From Escherichia coli (lineage in GTDB: Bacteria; Pseudomonadota; Gammaproteobacteria; Enterobacterales; Enterobacteriaceae), in assembly GCF_044647545.1 (NCBI RefSeq), contig NZ_CP172818.1: 64,000 nucleotides of DNA, one strand, 5' to 3'. The notes beneath the pieces were generated by a model. That model was not told the DNA's origin and did no database searches. It was given only the letters and a program-made list of their open reading frames with translations. This document shows positions 27,250 to 61,264 of this stretch, piece after piece (the stretch's first letter is position 1; every line of letters starts with the position of its first letter). The translations under genes and the position numbers were made by a program.

Positions 27250-28800
27250 TCACAAATGTTGCTCGGCCCAGCGTAAGAAATCCTCTTTCGGTAATGCCTT
27301 GCTGTAGAGCCAGCCCTGGCCGTAGTGCACGCCATGCTGGCGTAGCCACTCTTCTTGTTTACTGGTTTCGATTCCCTCCGCTACCATTTTCAGTTTCAGT
27401 GTTTTTGCCATTTCGATGATATGTGGCGTGACATTTTTATATTCCAGCGCATCAACGAAAGATTTATCGATCTTCAGAATGTCGACATCCAGATCCTGTA
27501 AATAGCTTAAACTTGAATACCCCGTACCAAAATCATCGAGATAAATTTCATGGCCCGCCTCCCGGTAGCGAGAAATTATCGGGGCGCTGGTTTTCGGATC
27601 GGCAAACTCGCGTTCAGTGAGTTCAAGCGCGATCTGTCTGGGATTAACCTGATAGTGATTGATCATTTCACGCAGCAATTGCGGGATTTTTTCCGAGGTG
27701 AGCACGGTGGATTCAAGATTGATCGAAATATGCTGCTGCGGATGCTGACGCAGCCAGTCGCCCATATCTTCAAAGACACTTTTTATAATCAGTAGCGTCA
27801 ACGGCTCAGAAAGCCCCGTTTGCTGTGCCAGCGGAATAAAACTATCTGGTGACAACCAACTACCGTCTGTCTGCGGCCAGCGCGCCAGTGCCTCAGCACC
27901 GACAATTTTGCCATTGGCTAAGGAGACAATCGGCTGATAGTGCACGCAAATATCACGATTTTCGATAGCATCCTGCAGCCGATGATGCGGTGACTGGATA
28001 CGGCGCAAAATACGCAGCACAAACATCGCTGCCAGCAGGCCAATCACCAACCCGAGCGGTAACCAAATAAAGACTTGCCGATGCCAGCCTTTCTGCAACA
28101 TTTTCGTTGAAGCCCAGGTGATGATCGAAATATTCATCTCCGGTAAGGGCAGGATATCGTAAATGATTCCATTATTTTCGATATGCTCACCGGGTGTTTT
28201 TTGTAGTCTGGTAATAATTCCCTGAGCAATTTCATCGCTGCTGGTTATCACAACGTTATGGGCATTGCCAATAATGGCGGCATCAATTTGCCATGAGCTA
28301 TAGGGAATGACATCAATAAAGGAAGCGGGGTCGATCATGACGACATAATGTGCCGTTCCCATGGCGACCATGTAACGGATAATGCCTAAATCGTTATGCG
28401 ATGTTAACCAGACACGATAACCATCTTTCGAAATTTTACCTGGCTCGGGGAAGGCATCGGGTGGGCTTTCATGCTCCAGAGACGAACACAGGGGAACGTT
28501 GTTATCGATATAAACCACTTCCTGAATATAGCGATAACTGTAAGATACCCGACGCATTTCCATGAGATGGGCTGCGCTACAGGCAGCGCCTTGCCATCTT
28601 TCCAGCTCTTGCAGCGCATCTTTCCCTTGTGTCGCCACCTTATTGGCCCGAATAGCGACGCGGGAGGAATACGTATTCAGCTCTTCAATAAATGATGTTT
28701 CTACCTGCTGATGGGCCAGCCAGATGCTTAAGCCGACAGGCAGCAATACTGAAAGAATCAGTACTCCCGAAATAAGGCCGACCAGATGTCGTGTTCTCAC
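27250..28800 (-). CDS. pdeB: c-di-GMP phosphodiesterase (CSS periplasmic domain + EAL domain)
   Basis: EAL motifs present (EALARW, DDFGTGYSS); start chosen at GTG 28798-28800 (516 aa); an in-frame ATG two codons upstream (28806) is the track start. Also known as ylaB. Confidence 0.88.
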   Translation of the reverse strand: MRTRHLVGLISGVLILSVLLPVGLSIWLAHQQVETSFIEELNTYSSRVAIRANKVATQGKDALQELERWQGAACSAAHLMEMRRVSYSYRYIQEVVYIDNNVPLCSSLEHESPPDAFPEPGKISKDGYRVWLTSHNDLGIIRYMVAMGTAHYVVMIDPASFIDVIPYSSWQIDAAIIGNAHNVVITSSDEIAQGIITRLQKTPGEHIENNGIIYDILPLPEMNISIITWASTKMLQKGWHRQVFIWLPLGLVIGLLAAMFVLRILRRIQSPHHRLQDAIENRDICVHYQPIVSLANGKIVGAEALARWPQTDGSWLSPDSFIPLAQQTGLSEPLTLLIIKSVFEDMGDWLRQHPQQHISINLESTVLTSEKIPQLLREMINHYQVNPRQIALELTEREFADPKTSAPIISRYREAGHEIYLDDFGTGYSSLSYLQDLDVDILKIDKSFVDALEYKNVTPHIIEMAKTLKLKMVAEGIETSKQEEWLRQHGVHYGQGWLYSKALPKEDFLRWAEQHL

Positions 28801-28963
28801 CAGCATATCCTTATTAACACAGTGTAGGGAAAGTATATCTGATTGTGGAAAAAGGCTGGCAGGAGATAAGGAGGTAGAGCCGGGATTTCATGAAGTGATG
28901 GGTGGAAACGAACGTTGTCATTTGACCAGGCGCAGAGCTTTACGCCTGGTATGTAACCCTAAC

Positions 28964-29434
28964 TTAAGATGTTGATTCGGCGCGAGCGAGGGTAAAAATA
29001 TCGTAAAAAGACAGTTCACCTTTACGGACGAGCATTTTTTGCAGTTGTTCTTTATGAACATCCGCGACACGCGGAGAGTTCAAGATGGCTTCAACCAGCG
29101 CGGCAGGTACAAAGCGCGTGTTGTACCATTCGCCGTTATAGCAAACGCGGAAATCCAGCACGTCGATATCTTCATAGCGGTAGCGTGGGTAGACATCGAA
29201 AAAGAAGAAACCATTCAGCAGGATAAATAATACAACCAGTAGCCAGACAGAGCCTGAAAGCGTTTCGGACTGCAACATCACCGCCAGGGTGGCAAAAAAA
29301 GCAACGTACATACCGATAAACAGCCCCGGATGTTTACGGATAAAACTGATACTAAAGCGGGGTTTGTTGTCGCGTTTTTCGCGGGTATTCAGAGACTCAA
29401 TCGTTTCGGTCAGCAGGCGTTGTATTTCGGTCAT
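28964..29434 (-). CDS. ylaC: Inner membrane protein YlaC
   Basis: 156 aa from [15 protein letters not shown]; two predicted TM helices; track ORF is 5'-extended. Confidence 0.88.
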
Positions 29435-29549
29435 CGTTTGCCTTCGTGGTATCTGCAACTTTCCAGGGAACACCCTATTTTAACGTGGGAATAGTAGAGG
29501 GAAAGTAACAGATTTGCCACGATTTTGCATAACAGTTGCGAAAAACTGG

Positions 29550-30101
29550 TTACAATTTTTTAATTATTCTGGCTGGATTACCGCCCACGACAACGTTGTC
29601 CGGGACATCTTTTGTGACAACTGCACCTGAGGCTACCACGACGTTATCACCAATGGTCACACCAGGGTTAATGATCGCGCGTCCGCCAATCCAGACGTTA
29701 TTACCGATGGTGACGGGTTTCCCCAGTTCAGCACCGCTATTACGTGCTACAGGGTCGATGGGATGTGTTGCCGTGTAGATATGAACGCCTGGTGCCAACA
29801 TACAGTTATCACCGATGCGAATAGGGCAGACATCAAGCATCACGCAATCGAAGTTGGCGAAAAAATTATTGCCGAGAAAAATGTTATAGCCATAATCACA
29901 GCGAAACGTTGGCTCAATATAAGCCTCTGTCACCTGACCGAATAATTCAGCGAGAATTTGCTGGCGTAATGTGTGCTCTTCCGCCAGGGAATGATTGTAT
30001 CGGTGAATAAGCTGACGAGCGCGCAGGCGATCGCGAGATAACGTCTCATCTGCCGAGCGATACAACTCACCAGCAATCATCTTTTCTTTTTCTGTGCTCA
30101 T
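29550..30101 (-). CDS. maa: Maltose O-acetyltransferase (hexapeptide-repeat family)
   Basis: 183 aa with left-handed beta-helix hexapeptide repeats; recognised as Maa. Confidence 0.94.
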
Positions 30102-30272
30102 TACTGACCTCCGGTTGCTGAAAATGCGGCAACACAGTAAGACGAAAAGTCAGTGAAGAGAACGTTCCCATTACGTCTGTGTGATGAAGATCACATAGGG
30201 TATGCCTTCATGGCGATAAAGTATAAAATTCTTAATAAACAGCTGGTTATAGCTCCGAAAGCCAATTATTTA

Positions 30273-30491
30273 TTAGCGAATAAATTTCCATACTGAGGAA
30301 GGGATCTTGTCGTACAGTTTATTCATAGTCAATTCGGCGAGGCGGTGATCTGCGGCTGAGTAAAATACCGCCAGTTCATTATCTGATAATTCGTATTTAT
30401 TTTTCTCGATAACACGCTCCAGCGTGTCAATTGTCTGGCAACGACGTAAACGCATTAAATAATCGGTTTTCGTTAAAGGTTTTTCGGACAT
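30273..30491 (-). CDS. hha: Haemolysin expression modulating protein Hha (H-NS co-regulator)
   Basis: 72 aa from [20 protein letters not shown]; track ORF 30273..30737 is a 5'-extended read-through. Confidence 0.93.
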
Positions 30492-30516
30492 ACTTCTACC
30501 CATGGTTGTAATAATT

Positions 30517-30891
30517 CTAACAAGATAAACTCGCAGGATTCTCTTTCGTCGCATTGACAAAACAACGGAATAGTCGATTACCTGACTTCCGCCATTTCTG
30601 AAGATCCTGCATATTAATACCATAACTGCTGAACAACATAAAGGTGTCATCCAGATATTCGTCGATCTGCTCAATGAGCTTATTGTCTTCATTATACTTA
30701 ATTTTGTAATTAAGTGCGAAGGTCGCAATATGCTCAATCAGTTCATTCAACTGGAGGTTGATCGCCGAGGTTGGGTCGTTAACCCAGCCATGATTGCTTT
30801 CTTCAAGGTTTGCAAGACAGTCATGATACAGGGTTTCACAGAGAAACTTAAGCTGTGCGATATCATGTCTTTTGGGTGAGTATTCATCCAT
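30517..30891 (-). CDS. tomB: Hha toxicity modulator TomB
   Basis: 124 aa ORF immediately upstream of hha on the same strand. Also known as ybaJ. Confidence 0.92.
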
Positions 30892-31394
30892 AACGCGTCC
30901 CCTTCTTAGCGGTTGAACTAACGGACACCTTTCGGGATGGAAAAAACTTACTGACCTGGACTTGCCCTCTCGTTTGTTAGCTTAACTATAAGCCACTCTT
31001 TGCAGGTTTTCATCGCATTATTACGAAAAATTACAATTAGGAAGGAAGCGGGACAGGACTTACTTTTTCATACTAGCACTAACCCGCAGCAGGTAAAAGC
31101 AGTTTGCTCGAACTGTTCATAACATTTCAGGATTATCGCCAGATGAAATTGGTAACACTAATACCAGGATTGCTCTGAATATGACGTAATAACCGAGGAA
31201 TGAATAAAGAATTACCGCAAATAATTAAGAATAGCCTCTAAATGATTATGGATTATTAAATCTATTAGCGCTACTTAATATAAATTAACTAACAATCAGT
31301 ATTTTTTATGAATTTTATACGTGTTTAATACTGGTTTTCGTATGAGATCCTGAGTTGGTGGTTCAATGACTCCTTAATGTTCGTAGGTTATGCA

Positions 31395-31419
31395 TAAAAA
31401 AGGCCGCTTGCGCGGCCTT
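31395..31419 (-). terminator. Rho-independent terminator of acrAB
   Basis: Hairpin AGGCCGC-TTGC-GCGGCCT with A5 on plus strand (U-run on minus-strand transcript), 18 nt downstream of acrB stop. Confidence 0.8.
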
Positions 31420-31436
31420 AGTGATTACACGTTGTA

Positions 31437-34589
<3,153 letters not shown>

Positions 34590-35802: not shown

Positions 35803-35891
35803 ATGTAAACCTCGAGTGTCCGATTTCAAATTGGTCAATGGTCAAAAGTTAATAAACCCATTGCTGCGTTTATATTATCGTCGTGCTATGG

Positions 35892-35915
35892 TACATACAT
35901 TCACAAATGTATGTA
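35892..35915. promoter_or_regulatory. AcrR operator (24-bp palindrome) in acrA-acrR divergent promoter region
   Basis: TACATACATT-CACA-AATGTATGTA, perfect 10-bp inverted arms, between the acrA and acrR starts. Confidence 0.85.
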
Positions 35916-35943
35916 AATCTAACGCCTGTAAATTCACGAACAT

Positions 35944-57928: not shown

Positions 57929-58186
57929 ACGACCTCCCTTTGTGAAATATCATGCTAGCGCGCGGGGAGGGATGGCGCAAATGGAGTTGTTGTCGCACTT
58001 GTGCACAGTGCTTGTGTGCATTACAATAATTAAACAATGGACAAGGAGATGAGAATGGAATGGCTCAAAAGAATAATATAAGGAGTTTTCGTGATCCTGC
58101 TGGCTGATTTTTTTTTCCATTCAACCCCACATCAAAAAATCCCTCTAAAATCCATACCACTTATCACAAAAGTGGACATCATTAAT

Positions 58187-58346
58187 CCCCCCCCTTCTCT
58201 CCGTTTTCCCCCCCCCCCGAAACGAAAAAAAAAGTTTTGGAAAAAAAAAGAAATTTCCCCAAAAAAAAAAAAAAAAAAAAAAAAAAATAAAAAAGGGAAA
58301 AAAAAAAAGGAAAAAAAATTTTTTTAAAAAAAAAAAAAAAAAAAAA
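58187..58346. repeat. Homopolymer-rich low-complexity block (C8, C11, A9, A9, A27, A11, A8, T7, A21) upstream of ybaQ
   Basis: Directly visible in the sequence; composition unlike any other part of the window. See findings. Confidence 0.95.
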
Positions 58347-58379
58347 CATAGCTGTCGTATTGACGAGAAAGGTAAAACC

Positions 58380-58751
58380 ATGAAACAGGCAACAAGAAAA
58401 CCGACGACACCCGGAGATATTCTTCTCTATGAATATCTGGAACCGCTCGATTTGAAAATCAATGAGTTAGCAGAGTTACTGCATGTTCATCGTAATAGCG
58501 TCAGTGCACTGATCAATAATAATCGTAAACTCACCACTGAAATGGCATTCCGTCTGGCGAAAGTTTTTGATACCACAGTCGATTTTTGGCTAAACCTCCA
58601 GGCGGCAGTTGATCTTTGGGAAGTTGAAAACAACATGCGTACCCAGGAAGAATTGGGACGGATTGAAACAGTGGCTGAATATTTGGCACGCCGTGAAGAG
58701 CGTGCAAAAAAGGTCGCGTATATGCGCCACCCTAAAGCAGTGCATCCGTAA
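58380..58751 (+). CDS. ybaQ: XRE-family HTH protein, HigA-like putative antitoxin
   Basis: 123 aa ORF with central HTH (LKINELAELLHVHRNSVSALINN); recognised as YbaQ; start taken from the track, and my recollection of the annotated length (113 aa) is not reconciled with this ORF. Confidence 0.85.
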   Translation: MKQATRKPTTPGDILLYEYLEPLDLKINELAELLHVHRNSVSALINNNRKLTTEMAFRLAKVFDTTVDFWLNLQAAVDLWEVENNMRTQEELGRIETVAEYLARREERAKKVAYMRHPKAVHP

Positions 58752-58759
58752 TGATGTAC

Positions 58760-61264
58760 TTATTCCTTCGGTTTAAATCGCAGCAATCGGTTGGCGTTAC
58801 TCACTACGGTAATCGACGAGAGCGCCATTGCCGCTCCGGCAACCACCGGGTTAAGCAGCGTACCGGTGAACGGCCACAAAATACCGGCGGCGACCGGAAT
58901 ACCAATGCTGTTGTAGATAAACGCACCGAGCAGGTTCTGCTTCATATTGCGCAGCGTTGCGCGGGAAATCGCGAGCGCATCTGCAACACCCATCAGGCTA
59001 TGGCGCATCAGGGTAATCGCCGCGGTTTCAATGGCAACATCACTGCCGCCACCCATCGCAATACCGACATCCGCCTGAGCCAGCGCTGGCGCGTCGTTAA
59101 TGCCGTCGCCCACCATTGCCACCTGACGTCCTTCACTTTGCAGACGTTTGATCGCTTCGGCTTTACCGTCCGGTAGCACCCCGGCTATCACCTCATCAAT
59201 CCCTGCTTCTTTGGCGATCGCATTGGCGGTGGTTGGGTTATCCCCGGTTAGCATCACCAGACGATATCCCGCTTTATGCAGGCGTTGCAGCGCCGCCACG
59301 CTATCACTACGCAACGGATCGCGTACAGCCAGCAGGGCTACCGCTTTCCCGTCAACCGCCAGCAGCACAGGCGTTGCCCCTTGCGATGCCTGAGCTGAAA
59401 TATCTGCCTCAATCGCTTTAGTATCAACTTGCTGGTCATTTAACAGCGCCTGATTACCCAGCAATAACGCATGACCTTCAGCTTCACCGCTCACGCCCAG
59501 CCCGCGCAATGTGCGGAAACCGTTGACCTGCGGCAGCTGCATATCACCTGCTTTATCGAGGATCGCTCGTGCCAGCGGATGGCTGGAACCTTGCTCCAGT
59601 GCCGCCGCCAGACGCAATGCCTGCGCTTCATCAACATCAGCAAACGTTTTCACTGCGACAACCTGCGGCTTCCCTTCGGTCAGCGTCCCGGTTTTATCGA
59701 ACACGACGGTGTCGAGCGTACTGGCGCGTTGCAGCGCGTCAGCGTCCCGCACCAGCACGCCAAACTCAGCCGCCCGCCCGACGCCCGAAATAATCGACAT
59801 CGGCGTCGCCAGTCCCAGCGCACACGGACAGGCAATAATCAGCACCGTGGTGGCAATCACCAGGGTATAGACAATTTGCGGTGCCGGACCAAAGAAATAC
59901 CAGATTGCCGCACTGACAAGCGCAATAACCACTACTACCGGCACAAATACGGCTGAGATTTTATCCGCCAGTTGACCGATTTCTGGCTTGCTGCTCTGGG
60001 CCTGTCGCACCATGCGAATGATCCGTGACAGCGTAGTATGGCTGCCGACCGCACTGGCGCGAAACAGCACACTGCCGTCCTGTACCACTGTCCCGGCATG
60101 GACGCTATCGCCTTCGCCTTTTTGCTGCGGGATTGGTTCGCCCGTCAGCATCGCTTCATCCAGCCACGCTTCGCCCTGGGTAATTTCACCATCTACCGGC
60201 ACCCGATCACCCGTCGTCAGGCGCAGCAACATACCTGGCTGAACATCTGCCAGCGGCACGTTTTTTTCACCTTCGTTGGTGACCAGGCGCGCCGTCGGTG
60301 GGGTTAAATCGAGTAATTTCTCCAGCGCCTTAGAAGAACGCTGACGTGCGCGCGCTTCCAGCATATGACCGAGATTAATCAGACCGATAATCATCGCACT
60401 GGCTTCATAGTAAAGATGTCGCGCTTCCATCGGGAACCACTGCGGCCACAGGTTGACGCTCATTGAATAGAGCCACGCCACGCCCGTACCCAGCGCCACC
60501 AGCGTATCCATCGTCGCTGCACCGTTCAGCAGGCTTTTCCATGCGCTGCGGTAAAAATGGCCGCCGGCGAAAACCATTACCGCCAGGGTTATCAGGCCGA
60601 TAACCAACCACAGGCTGCGGTTGTCGGCGGTGACCATCATGTTATCGCCGATCATCCCCCAGACCATCACCGGGATACCCACCGCCAGTGCGACAATCGC
60701 CTGCCAGCGGAAGCGCTTCATCGTAGCGACGGCGGTTTCTTGCTGGCGCTCGCGGCGTTTAGCGTCATCTTCAATCGCTTCCGCGCCGTAGCCCGCTTTT
60801 TCCACCGCCTGCACTAAATCTTGTGGGGAGGCACTGCCCATCACCAGCGCAGTACGCTCCGCCAGGTTTACCCGTGCCTGAGTGACGCCCGGTACGCTTT
60901 GCAACGCATTTTGTACGCGGGTGACACAGCTGGCGCAGCTCATGCCGCTCAGCAGCAACTGCTGGCTGTCATCGTCATCGGCGGTCGCTGCCGGAAGCGC
61001 CTCAGAAACCGCTGTCAGTGCTTCCGACGGGATTGATGACTCCGCCAGCGGTTTAGCCTTTGGGTGGCTTACAGATGCGTCATAACCCGCTTGTTTGATG
61101 GTTTCGATCAGCTGTTCTGCACTGGCAGTCCCGGTAACGTGCGCTTCAGTGACAGACACATCCGCCTGCTCAACATCCGGGCGCTGTTCGAGACTTTCTT
61201 TCACGCGTTTAACGCAGTGACCGCAGGACAGGCCGTCCAGGGTCAGGTCGATAGTTTGTGACAT
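58760..61264 (-). CDS. copA: Cu(I)-exporting P1B-type ATPase
   Basis: 834 aa; two N-terminal CxxC metal-binding domains (GLSCGHC, GMSCASC), CPC in TM6, DKTGT phosphorylation motif. Confidence 0.97.
61057..61063 (-). promoter_or_regulatory. Candidate copA programmed -1 frameshift heptamer (C CCA AAG) yielding the CopA(Z) chaperone
   Basis: Minus-strand CCCAAAG at codons His-Pro-Lys (HPKAKPL), about codon 69-70, directly after the first metal-binding domain; placement follows the published CopA(Z) frameshift as I recall it. Confidence 0.6.

Follow-up and report, generated by a model that had tools for sequence, protein, structure and literature searches.

In E. coli, earlier work has already described tomB-hha and its promoter well; the K-12 pair (ybaJ-hha, b0461-b0460) is transcribed from the promoter ptomB. 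In Yersinia the orthologous pair is ymoB-ymoA (TomB of the present locus matches the YmoB structure, and Hha matches YmoA), which has two mapped transcription starts, 188 and 106 nt upstream of ymoB and thus 82 nt apart, as well as negative autoregulation and a CpxR motif 56 bp upstream of the proximal start. Homologues of hha also reside on conjugative plasmids, where they lie in the plasmid backbones and have no tomB partner. A further parallel is found in H-NS-silenced promoters that are countered by response regulators, such as csgD with RcsB and H-NS. In enterobacteria, Hha sharpens the silencing that H-NS exerts on virulence genes and foreign genes, so its cellular amount has consequences for pathogenesis, for the formation of biofilms and for the biology of plasmids.

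We analysed a 64,000-nucleotide stretch of an E. coli chromosome (RefSeq assembly GCF_044647545.1, contig NZ_CP172818.1), hereafter the window, within which the segment 30102–31436 very probably represents the chromosomal tomB-hha operon and its upstream control region, without the 545-nt leader that an earlier note on this DNA had assigned to it. The coordinates and gene calls of that note were right, in that hha, tomB and a 545-bp acrB-tomB spacer were recovered, all on the minus strand; the acrB stop codon begins at 31437, hence the spacer (30892–31436) measures 545 bp. Genes, gene order, neighbours and spacer length are all the same as in K-12, from which the 1335 bp differ by 18 substitutions and no indels, with 30892–31040 identical and no substitution between the CpxR box and the tomB start codon, i.e., differences of no substance. 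The window derives from a non-K-12 strain and is 100% identical to NZ_CP033850.1 over 30000–31600. The segment adds no new element to the described locus, and the one item that is possibly new is a conserved RcsB-type palindrome within the spacer. The features are given below in the order in which they follow one another on the minus strand.

31437–34586, minus strand: acrB, RND efflux permease and upstream neighbour (1049-aa ORF; acrB is annotated in K-12 and NZ_CP033850.1).
31392–31419, minus strand: intrinsic terminator of acrB (8-bp GC-rich stem 31419–31412/31407–31400, 4-nt loop, T-tract 31399–31392).
31320–31396, no strand: hypervariable segment of ~75 bp just past the terminator, in a version specific to E. 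coli (alignment gaps).
31278–31297, minus strand: conserved island ATTGTTA...ATTTAT (85–95% column conservation inside a poorly conserved tract).
31040–31320, no strand: AT-rich upstream tract (33.5% GC; core 31146–31345, 27%), delimited by composition.
31165–31178, minus strand: degenerate RcsB-type box TCAGAGCAATCCTG (from alignment columns).
31116–31120, minus strand: conserved ATGAA island (column conservation of 95% or more across the family).
31020–31034, minus strand: CpxR-type box GTAAT-N5-GTAAT, at −56 to −42 from the start site and just upstream of the −35 element.
30985–31013, minus strand: sigma-70 promoter ptomB (−35 ATGAAA 31013–31008, 17-bp spacer, −10 TATAGT 30990–30985).
30978, minus strand: probable transcription start (+1 = A, −1 = T; 7th nucleotide after the −10 element, preceded by T).
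30892–30978, minus strand: 87-nt 5'UTR (near-invariant CCATCCC 30940–30934; Shine-Dalgarno AAGGGGA 30904–30898).
30517–30891, minus strand: tomB (ybaJ), 124 aa, Hha toxicity modulator (Pfam YbaJ PF10757, YmoB structure match).
30492–30516, minus strand: tomB-hha spacer of 25 nt, read off the sequence.
30273–30491, minus strand: hha, 72 aa, H-NS co-regulator with Cys18 (Pfam HHA PF05321).
30222–30275, minus strand: weak candidate terminator, formed by an AU-rich hairpin across the hha stop codon with a U-rich run behind it (from folding).
30102–30221, minus strand: rest of the hha-maa spacer, presumed to be the maa promoter region.

The identities proposed for the two proteins are borne out by their family matches, with which the RefSeq annotation agrees. 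Hha scored 135.3 bits against the Pfam profile PF05321 (cut-off 25, E = 8e-40, profile positions 1–57 of 57) and TomB 220.1 bits against YbaJ PF10757 (cut-off 25, E = 1e-65, profile positions 1–117 of 118). At the level of structures, Hha gave an identical-length match to PDB 1JW2 and 2MW2 (residues 1–72, E = 1.2e-44), while TomB matched the solved YmoB structure 2MN2. A PDB entry related to Hha is named H-NS/StpA-binding protein 2, and the Hha encoded here may bind the N-terminal domain of H-NS. Its translation carries a cysteine at position 18, which one study identifies as the target of TomB-promoted oxidation (PMC5155140). The 25-nt distance of hha from tomB places it in the same position as in all retrieved loci.

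The AT-richness that the earlier note had remarked upon is real. Sliding-window analysis returned 39.1% GC for 30102–31436 against a window mean of 51.6%; a value this low is reached by just 0.19% of stretches of equal size, the minimum being 38.6%. Both genes share in this composition, hha (40.2%) and tomB (40.5%) being the two lowest-GC coding sequences among the 52 annotated features tabulated, a table that runs to 57.9 kb. The acrB-tomB spacer has 37.6% GC, with 27.9% in 31140–31340 and 27.0% in 31146–31345, the latter being the second-lowest 200-bp stretch within the window. The lowest such stretch, at 58.2 kb, reflects an artefact in the sequence. Compared with other spacers, the GC content of the acrB-tomB spacer is not extreme (6th lowest of the 32 that span at least 80 bp, mean 44.1%), and this spacer stands out by its length, which is the greatest in the window. 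A/T runs of at least six nucleotides make up 23% of 31040–31320, the average being 6.3% (top 1.5%). Helical phasing of the A-tracts, used as a proxy for curvature, was weak, with only the 10.5-bp period at p ~0.02 among the four tested and no clear autocorrelation.

Judged by its composition, the AT-rich tract at 31040–31320 is a probable binding platform for H-NS and Hha, and we infer that it would act in E. coli as a nucleation platform for autoregulation. The link to H-NS drawn in the earlier note finds support in the literature: the study of Shimada et al. 2014 flags an H-NS site in the tomB-acrB spacer, second-hand, in a table that cites Oshima 2006 (PMC3946193), and deletion of ymoA in Yersinia increased ymoB 81-fold (PMC8369931). 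Unlike this autoregulation in Yersinia, the activity of a p922-GFP fusion in Salmonella was lower in both hha and tomB single mutants (PMC5133643). The high-affinity H-NS motif of Lang et al., TCGATAAATT, showed no local enrichment when up to two mismatches were allowed; its one match in the spacer (2 mismatches) overlaps the CpxR box, and another is located in the hha-maa spacer.

Low GC and H-NS binding would also be expected if the unit were a horizontally acquired island, its composition a foreign leftover and its silencing by H-NS the result, an explanation that we regard as rather unlikely. It draws on the low GC of the two genes, clearly below that of the host, and on a GC3 that in 61 species lies 17–23 points under that of acrB. 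Homologues of Hha, belonging to the same Pfam HHA family and 55–68% identical, occur on at least 5000 plasmids, mostly conjugative, and relatives of TomB are confined to Enterobacterales (331 matches in 100,044 species), those of Morganellaceae being 38–44% identical. Set against this is the stability of the locus. All 72 Enterobacteriaceae species with complete flanks have the same gene order, a spacer of 435–559 bp and a spacer GC of 35–40%, the lowest 200-bp stretch of the spacer ranging from 25 to 36% GC, at a sequence identity of only 25–70%. The order acrB-spacer-tomB-hha recurs in all 80 retrieved loci for which the flank was available, and the locus is present in 5424 of 5426 E. coli genomes, so the variable presence of xenogeneic DNA is not seen. 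A scan confined to the genes within 28500–33500 found none that resembles a mobility gene, so that at this level the borders show no sign of mobility. TomB is 89–100% identical across genera in the 80 retrieved loci (the best 80 of the 331 matches, all from Enterobacteriaceae), as befits a slowly evolving core gene, and it is essentially absent from true plasmids, the 14 plasmid records being for the most part chromosome-sized or mislabelled. Plasmid copies of hha have no tomB partner and are located in plasmid backbones, not downstream of acrB. Finally, the GC3 of tomB follows that of its host (Spearman 0.70, slope 0.53), and its composition is therefore partly equilibrated; what deficit is left may be kept because H-NS binding is selected for.

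Gene order, spacer length and low GC are thus kept in 72 of 72 species, and any foreign origin would therefore predate the family. The description of the module as anciently acquired could hold only for a time before the Enterobacteriaceae arose, and selection might just as well keep the composition as it is. Throughout the family, the spacer and the two genes are low in GC, which fits a self-silencing loop at least as well as it fits the fading trace of a foreign origin.

For the reading of the locus as a self-silencing core operon, two types of conserved boxes upstream of the start are of interest, and they offer direct targets for promoter dissection. The tandem pentamer consensus of CpxR is GTAAA-N5-GTAAA, and the variant GTAAT-N5-GTRAT is kept in 71 of the 73 aligned sequences. 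Both tomB and hha are RegulonDB targets of CpxR, and tomB belongs to the CpxR iModulon (PMC7657598). In Yersinia the ymoBA promoter fragment was shifted by CpxR~P in EMSA, reporter assays were also performed, and 56 bp separate the box from TSS2 downstream, just as they separate box and start in the window; CpxR activation left the level of YmoA protein unchanged there (PMC13353760). Inhibition of LolCDE raised tomB 5.9- to 11.2-fold.

Farther upstream, ~190 bp from the start in the window and 159–187 bp upstream of the CpxR box in most other species, the alignment contains a palindrome of the RcsB type with the columns T-N-R-G-A-N4-T-C-Y-T-R, in which GA and TC are invariant in 73/73 sequences. 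The family consensus at this site reads TAAGAATATTCCTA or TAGGAATATTCCTA, the former being the RcsAB consensus (PMC12388358), which 50 of the 73 sequences match at 12–14 of 14 positions in the homologous place. Salmonella, Citrobacter, Enterobacter, Klebsiella and Kluyvera are among the genera with a near-perfect site. Escherichia has 9/14, and in the window alone its 9 of 14 matches to TAAGAATATTCCTA are no better than chance, the degenerate pattern showing no enrichment. The literature searched contained no paper tying RcsB to tomB or ybaJ and no binding or expression data for this site. From the alignment one might tentatively suppose, although we would lean against it, that the AT-rich tract does more than offer H-NS a place to land and contains several deeply conserved islands, the clearest of them a putative RcsB palindrome that has decayed in Escherichia. 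If functional, it would allow Cpx and Rcs (or another partner of the NarL/FixJ family) to counter the self-silencing by H-NS and Hha jointly and so set the level of Hha, and Escherichia would have partly lost the distal input.

The combination of an H-NS-flagged AT-rich tract with candidate boxes for envelope-stress regulators recalls the csgD-type promoters. The differences are that the present tract belongs to the core genome and not to a recent island, that the operon encodes the partner of H-NS itself, which would create a feedback loop, and that anti-silencing at ptomB is putative. Reading along the minus strand, the arrangement would comprise the acrB terminator, ~75 bp of fast-evolving filler, ~280 bp of AT-rich tract, the CpxR-type box and ptomB, from which a bicistronic mRNA would begin at A30978 and take in the 87-nt 5'UTR, tomB, the 25-nt spacer and hha before it reaches a weak AU-rich hairpin. 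H-NS and its partner Hha would coat the AT-rich tract and the low-GC genes and dampen ptomB, amounting to negative autoregulation. Under envelope stress, phosphorylated CpxR would activate ptomB via its box, as the literature supports, and in stationary phase short RNA primers would, following published work, move initiation to −1 and increase tomB expression. Cleavage by RNase E near the tomB-hha junction has been published and could make the tomB and hha parts of the mRNA independent of each other. Between the proteins, TomB promotes oxidation of Cys18 and thereby inactivates Hha, as has also been published.

This last step touches on the toxin/antitoxin-like character that the earlier note had ascribed to the pair, and it is so described in the literature (PMC5133643, PMC5155140). 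It seems quite unlikely, however, that tomB-hha forms a classical addiction-type module, in which a toxin that arrests growth is bound tightly by a labile antitoxin, itself the repressor of the promoter from which it is expressed. Two small, adjacent, co-transcribed genes with the antitoxin first and a single conserved promoter, yielding a transcript from −89 to +662 (PMC4191395), have the expected layout, and TomB of Salmonella is reported to be labile, to co-precipitate with Hha and to bind p922 in EMSA (PMC5133643). Against such a module, Marimon et al. report only a transient interaction and an inactivation that proceeds via oxidation of the Hha cysteine. Salmonella strains deleted for hha, tomB or both grow normally, overexpression is non-toxic in standard media and the toxicity of Hha is only conditional (PMC5133643), while tomB mutants of E. 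coli are viable in biofilm screens. Real addiction modules travel jointly on mobile elements and are patchily distributed, whereas hha genes travel on plasmids without tomB and the chromosomal pair is syntenic in 72 species. Moreover, the established activity of Hha is that of an H-NS partner, with its solved structures and the H-NS/StpA-binding protein 2 entry in the PDB. As to whether TomB neutralises a growth-inhibiting Hha, the literature is mixed, with neutralisation by oxidation in one report (PMC5155140) and conditional toxicity in another (PMC5133643).

In the self-silencing operon as we read it, transcription begins close to tomB. The promoter scan returned 9/12 matches for ptomB, and genomic SELEX assigns the same hexamers, ATGAAA/TATAGT, to tomB-hha (PMC3946193). 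The −10 element TATAGT is found in all 65 distinct promoter-block sequences, which represent the 73 aligned sequences, and among the 73 both TATAGT and TGTAATTTTTCGTAAT vary little or not at all. A ChIP peak of sigma-S RNA polymerase is also listed for tomB (PMC4447067). A T-1/A+1 start region was mapped by 5' RNA-seq and primer extension (PMC4488433), to which 30979/30978 fits, and we infer 30978 as the exact start nucleotide. With this promoter (31013–30985), the mapped start and the −89 transcript boundary, the 5'UTR comprises ~87 nt and ~460 bp of the 545-bp spacer lie upstream of ptomB. Annotations should not call the spacer a "leader".

The scan returned a single terminator-like site, 31392–31419, which lies in the distal part of the spacer. 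Its stem pairs in 72–73 of the 73 sequences. Compensation is seen at 31418/31401, where 18 species have G-C in place of A-T, and one species has T-A in place of C-G. The unit does lie directly after the acrB terminator, as had been proposed. The ~75-bp segment that follows is gapped in ~90% of other genera, differs even between Escherichia species and is found as a single copy in 5423/5426 E. coli genomes. A dispersed repeat was considered for this segment and was ruled out by the single copy per genome. It includes a 13-aa ORF with a TTG start on the minus strand (31366–31325), behind a TAAGGAG motif; as this ORF is not kept in relatives of E. coli, it probably arose by chance. In most genera, the island at 31278–31297 directly follows the acrB terminator. 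ORFs that start at the ATG of the 31116–31120 island vary between genera in both length and sequence.

The small ORFs and sRNAs that the earlier note had suggested looking for in the leader did not emerge as conserved elements, given that none of the nine spacer ORFs of 10–40 aa on the two strands is conserved across genera and that an Rfam scan of both strands of 29500–32000 gave no match at E up to 1. Folding of the 5'UTR was no more stable than that of shuffled sequence (z = −0.29). CCAUCCC can pair with the Shine-Dalgarno sequence (GGGG/UGG) and the AUG in the consensus, and for the Gs of the Shine-Dalgarno the predicted pairing probability averages 0.72; none of the seven consensus pairs shows a compensatory change, and the predicted pairing partner of the Shine-Dalgarno sequence varies between genera. 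In Salmonella, p922, the fragment closest to tomB, was alone in driving GFP, and both candidate promoter fragments farther away were inactive (PMC5133643).

It is therefore very improbable, and already largely refuted by the short mapped 5'UTR, the strong terminator at the distal end, the hypervariable segment with its E. coli-confined ORF, the lack of conserved ORFs and of Rfam matches and the unremarkable UTR fold, that the whole spacer is a transcribed tomB leader or a host of sRNAs or small ORFs exerting post-transcriptional control, in spite of the great length of the spacer, its short ORFs (one of them behind TAAGGAG), the possible pairing of the Shine-Dalgarno sequence and the second, more distal start site of Yersinia (PMC13353760). 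By analogy with Yersinia, an additional upstream start may exist in E. coli, although only the proximal Yersinia start has a conserved counterpart here. As a candidate for a second promoter like the Yersinia TSS1, weak hexamers seen by eye at ~31097–31070 were rejected, the region being only ~25–30% identical. A PdhR site reported near tomB by genomic SELEX was likewise set aside, as it has only 8/14 matches and its authors place it inside an ORF.

At the other end of the operon, the hairpin at 30222–30275 has a folding energy of −12.8 kcal/mol, no better than that of shuffles, and was missed by the terminator scan; the 3' boundary of the Clarke et al. transcript, +662, falls right after it (PMC4191395). 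The hha-maa spacer as a whole has 40.4% GC, and maa, also on the minus strand, starts at 30101. In the neighbourhood of this spacer, Shimada 2014 reports SELEX peaks at map positions 10.30 and 10.33 (PMC3946193).

The window runs from cyoB to cueR on the E. coli chromosome, and its part at 30000–31600 was matched in 5424 of 5426 complete E. coli genomes, with identities of 100% in several strains and 95–99% in most. TomB gave a full-length match to Pfam YbaJ (E = 1e-65) and to the solved YmoB structure, and Hha to Pfam HHA (also full-length, E = 8e-40) and the solved Hha structure; together with the ORFs, these matches show that the coordinates and gene calls of the earlier note were correct. 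The observation is confirmed, and tomB-hha is a known locus that has been studied in detail before.

The description of the unit as AT-rich was borne out, since the GC content of 30102–31436 (1335 bp) is 39.1% against 51.6% for the window, and only 0.19% of same-size stretches in the window are as low. Curvature, which had been proposed as a second check, was less distinct, the phasing of A-tracts (its proxy) being only weak. The spacer between acrB and tomB (30892–31436) has a GC content of 37.6%, falling to 27% in its core (31146–31345), and A/T runs of at least 6 nt make up 23% of 31040–31320 versus 6.3% on average. By GC the spacer ranks only sixth lowest among the 32 intergenic spacers of at least 80 bp (mean 44.1%); it is the longest of the tabulated intergenic spacers, and among the 52 annotated features tabulated, which reach 57.9 kb, no coding sequence is lower in GC than hha (40.2%) and tomB (40.5%). 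The distinctness of the region is therefore one of spacer length and of low GC in both coding sequences. Promoter-bearing spacers in the window are commonly as AT-rich, as seen for cyoA-ampG (1782–2240; 459 bp, 36.2% GC, 200-bp minimum 30%) and acrA-acrR (35803–35943; 141 bp, 35.5% GC).

Scanning one genome per species retrieved a TomB relative in 331 species, and the best 80 of these 331 loci were all from Enterobacteriaceae (TomB identity 89–100%). In all 72 loci with complete flanks, which were used to compare order, length and GC, the genes follow the order acrB, spacer, tomB, hha, and then usually maa. The spacer measures 435–559 bp at 35–40% GC, and GC ranges over 39–46% in tomB, 37–45% in hha and 51–59% in acrB. 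GC3 lies below that of acrB by 17 points in tomB and 23 in hha, and tomB GC3 tracks that of the host (slope 0.53). The conserved order and the low GC and GC3 across species indicate that the low GC of this core locus is ancient and has been maintained, and any acquisition of tomB-hha is older than the radiation of the family. The anatomy of the spacer, read from an alignment of 73 sequences, is listed with the genes.

Features of the tomB-hha locus
31437–34586, minus strand: acrB
31419–31400: stem of the acrB terminator, followed by a T-tract; paired in 72–73 of 73 sequences
31396–31320: segment of ~75 bp after the terminator; absent from ~90% of genera
31320–31040: AT-rich tract, only 25–70% identical, yet with conserved islands
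31297–31278, minus strand: conserved island ATTGTTA...ATTTAT, inside the fast-evolving AT-rich tract
31178–31165, minus strand: degenerate RcsB-type site TCAGAGCAATCCTG; aligned columns T-N-R-G-A-N4-T-C-Y-T-R
31120–31116, minus strand: conserved island ATGAA, inside the same tract
31040–30985: near-invariant block, comprising the GTAAT-N5-GTAAT box TGTAATTTTTCGTAAT and, after it, ATGAAA-17-TATAGT (17-bp spacer)
Last 87 nt of the spacer: tomB 5'UTR, moderately conserved, with Shine-Dalgarno AAGGGGA
30934–30940, minus strand: CCATCCC in the tomB 5'UTR, nearly invariant
30517–30891, minus strand: tomB, 124 aa
30273–30491, minus strand: hha, 72 aa
29550–30101, minus strand: maa

In 18 species an A-T pair of the acrB terminator stem has become G-C, a compensatory change. 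The adjoining segment (31320–31396) is single-copy in E. coli, whereas other Escherichia species have unrelated sequence in its place; it marks a small, terminator-proximal turnover hotspot.

The promoter scan returned ATGAAA-17-TATAGT, identical to the promoter assigned to tomB-hha by genomic SELEX (Shimada et al., PMC3946193). Using 5' RNA-seq and primer extension, Druzhinin et al. (PMC4488433) placed the start region of ptomB at T-1/A+1 and used this promoter as a model for stationary-phase primer-dependent initiation, which raises tomB expression; of the T-A steps, only 30979/30978 is correctly spaced from the -10 element. Because the window shows zero differences from K-12 over 30892–31040, these K-12 promoter data transfer directly. 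In Salmonella, GFP was driven by the tomB-proximal fragment only (PMC5133643). The mapped start, the conserved promoter and this fragment result therefore give a leader of ~87 nt, and the "545-bp leader" of the earlier note was wrong. Clarke et al. (PMC4191395) used a tomB/hha transcript spanning -89 to +662 and reported that RNase E cleaves efficiently close to where tomB and hha join, and tomB is listed with a sigma-S RNA polymerase ChIP peak (PMC4447067).

The GTAAT-N5-GTAAT element, spanning -56 to -42, resembles a CpxR box. RegulonDB lists tomB and hha as CpxR targets, and the CpxR iModulon includes tomB (PMC7657598). CpxR~P also shifts the ymoBA promoter of Yersinia pseudotuberculosis, where the motif is 162 bp and the proximal start 106 bp upstream of ymoB (PMC13353760). 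The box-to-start distance is thus 56 bp both there (162 − 106) and in the window (143 − 87). Inhibition of LolCDE raised tomB 5.9- to 11.2-fold, in a listing that also contains dsrA and the colanic-acid gene wcaC (PMC5105897).

Further upstream, every one of the 73 sequences keeps the GA and TC of the RcsB-type columns. The homologous site, 159–187 bp upstream of the CpxR box and on the same strand, agrees in 50 of the 73 sequences with the RcsAB consensus TAAGAATATTCCTA (PMC12388358) at 12–14 of 14 positions; the best match also beats dinucleotide shuffles (p ≤ 0.05) in 50 of 73. The Escherichia site is degenerate (9 of 14 positions), and the pattern occurs at chance level within the window. 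A literature search for a link between RcsB and tomB/ybaJ found none, and to judge from the alignment this palindrome, which most Enterobacteriaceae retain upstream of tomB, is possibly a new detail.

Turning to the gene pair, at least 5000 plasmids carry Hha homologues (55–68% identity), and most of these plasmids are conjugative (3882 of 5000 counted Hha-family enterobacterial plasmids), versus only 14 plasmid records for TomB homologues, many of them chromosome-sized. Plasmid Hha-family genes have no tomB partner, except in a small number of records, very large or resembling chromosomes, in which tomB is present as well. The hha family is therefore plasmid-associated and the tomB-hha pair a fixed chromosomal unit, which is more in keeping with a regulatory pair than with an addiction module. 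This reading agrees with the transient, oxidation-based TomB-Hha mechanism described by Marimon et al. (PMC5155140); tomB mutants are also viable, both in Salmonella (PMC5133643) and in biofilm screens of E. coli, as this reading would have it.

Silencing by H-NS and Hha, proposed in the earlier note, draws on a published H-NS flag for the tomB-acrB spacer, in the same table row as the promoter (PMC3946193), and on Yersinia, where ymoB mRNA increased 81-fold in a mutant lacking ymoA and the authors concluded that autoregulation is negative (PMC8369931). The H-NS motif of Lang et al. showed no enrichment at the locus. Self-silencing by H-NS/Hha via the AT-rich tract is therefore a reasonable inference; Salmonella reporter data point differently (PMC5133643). 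The interpretation in the earlier note was partly right: the AT-richness, the H-NS link (through the published flag) and the gene pair stand, and the long leader does not.

Small ORFs or sRNAs, which the earlier note proposed to look for in the leader, did not emerge: the spacer holds nine small ORFs, all of them unconserved, and Rfam gave zero matches. CCATCCC is complementary to the Shine-Dalgarno GGGG and the start-region UGG, and in the consensus structure of the alignment CCAUCCC pairs with the Shine-Dalgarno and AUG; compensatory changes were seen in 0 of 7 pairs of this 5'UTR structure, the predicted partner of the Shine-Dalgarno varies between genera, and the 5'UTR fold was no more stable than shuffles (z = −0.29).

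Elsewhere, the lowest-GC stretch of the window (58130–58350, context 58060–58751) consists of long homopolymers (C8–C11, A9–A28, T7) and aligns base for base with a RelE/ParE-family toxin gene of strain FDAARGOS_497, which there precedes ybaQ (HigA-family antitoxin). Its flanks are normal (the toxin gene begins at 58060 and ybaQ at 58380), and the stretch seems to be an artefact of sequencing or assembly and not biology, as though homopolymers had taken the place of mixed bases. The toxin gene is also strain-variable, given that no more than 835 of 5426 E. coli genomes cover at least 80% of 58000–58800. Up to ~40.2 kb the window is almost identical to NZ_CP033850.1 and collinear with it, and small indels from 40213 onwards (offsets +2, +5, +12 and +13, then +31 and +50 around the artefact) mean that coordinates borrowed from that annotation drift beyond 40 kb.
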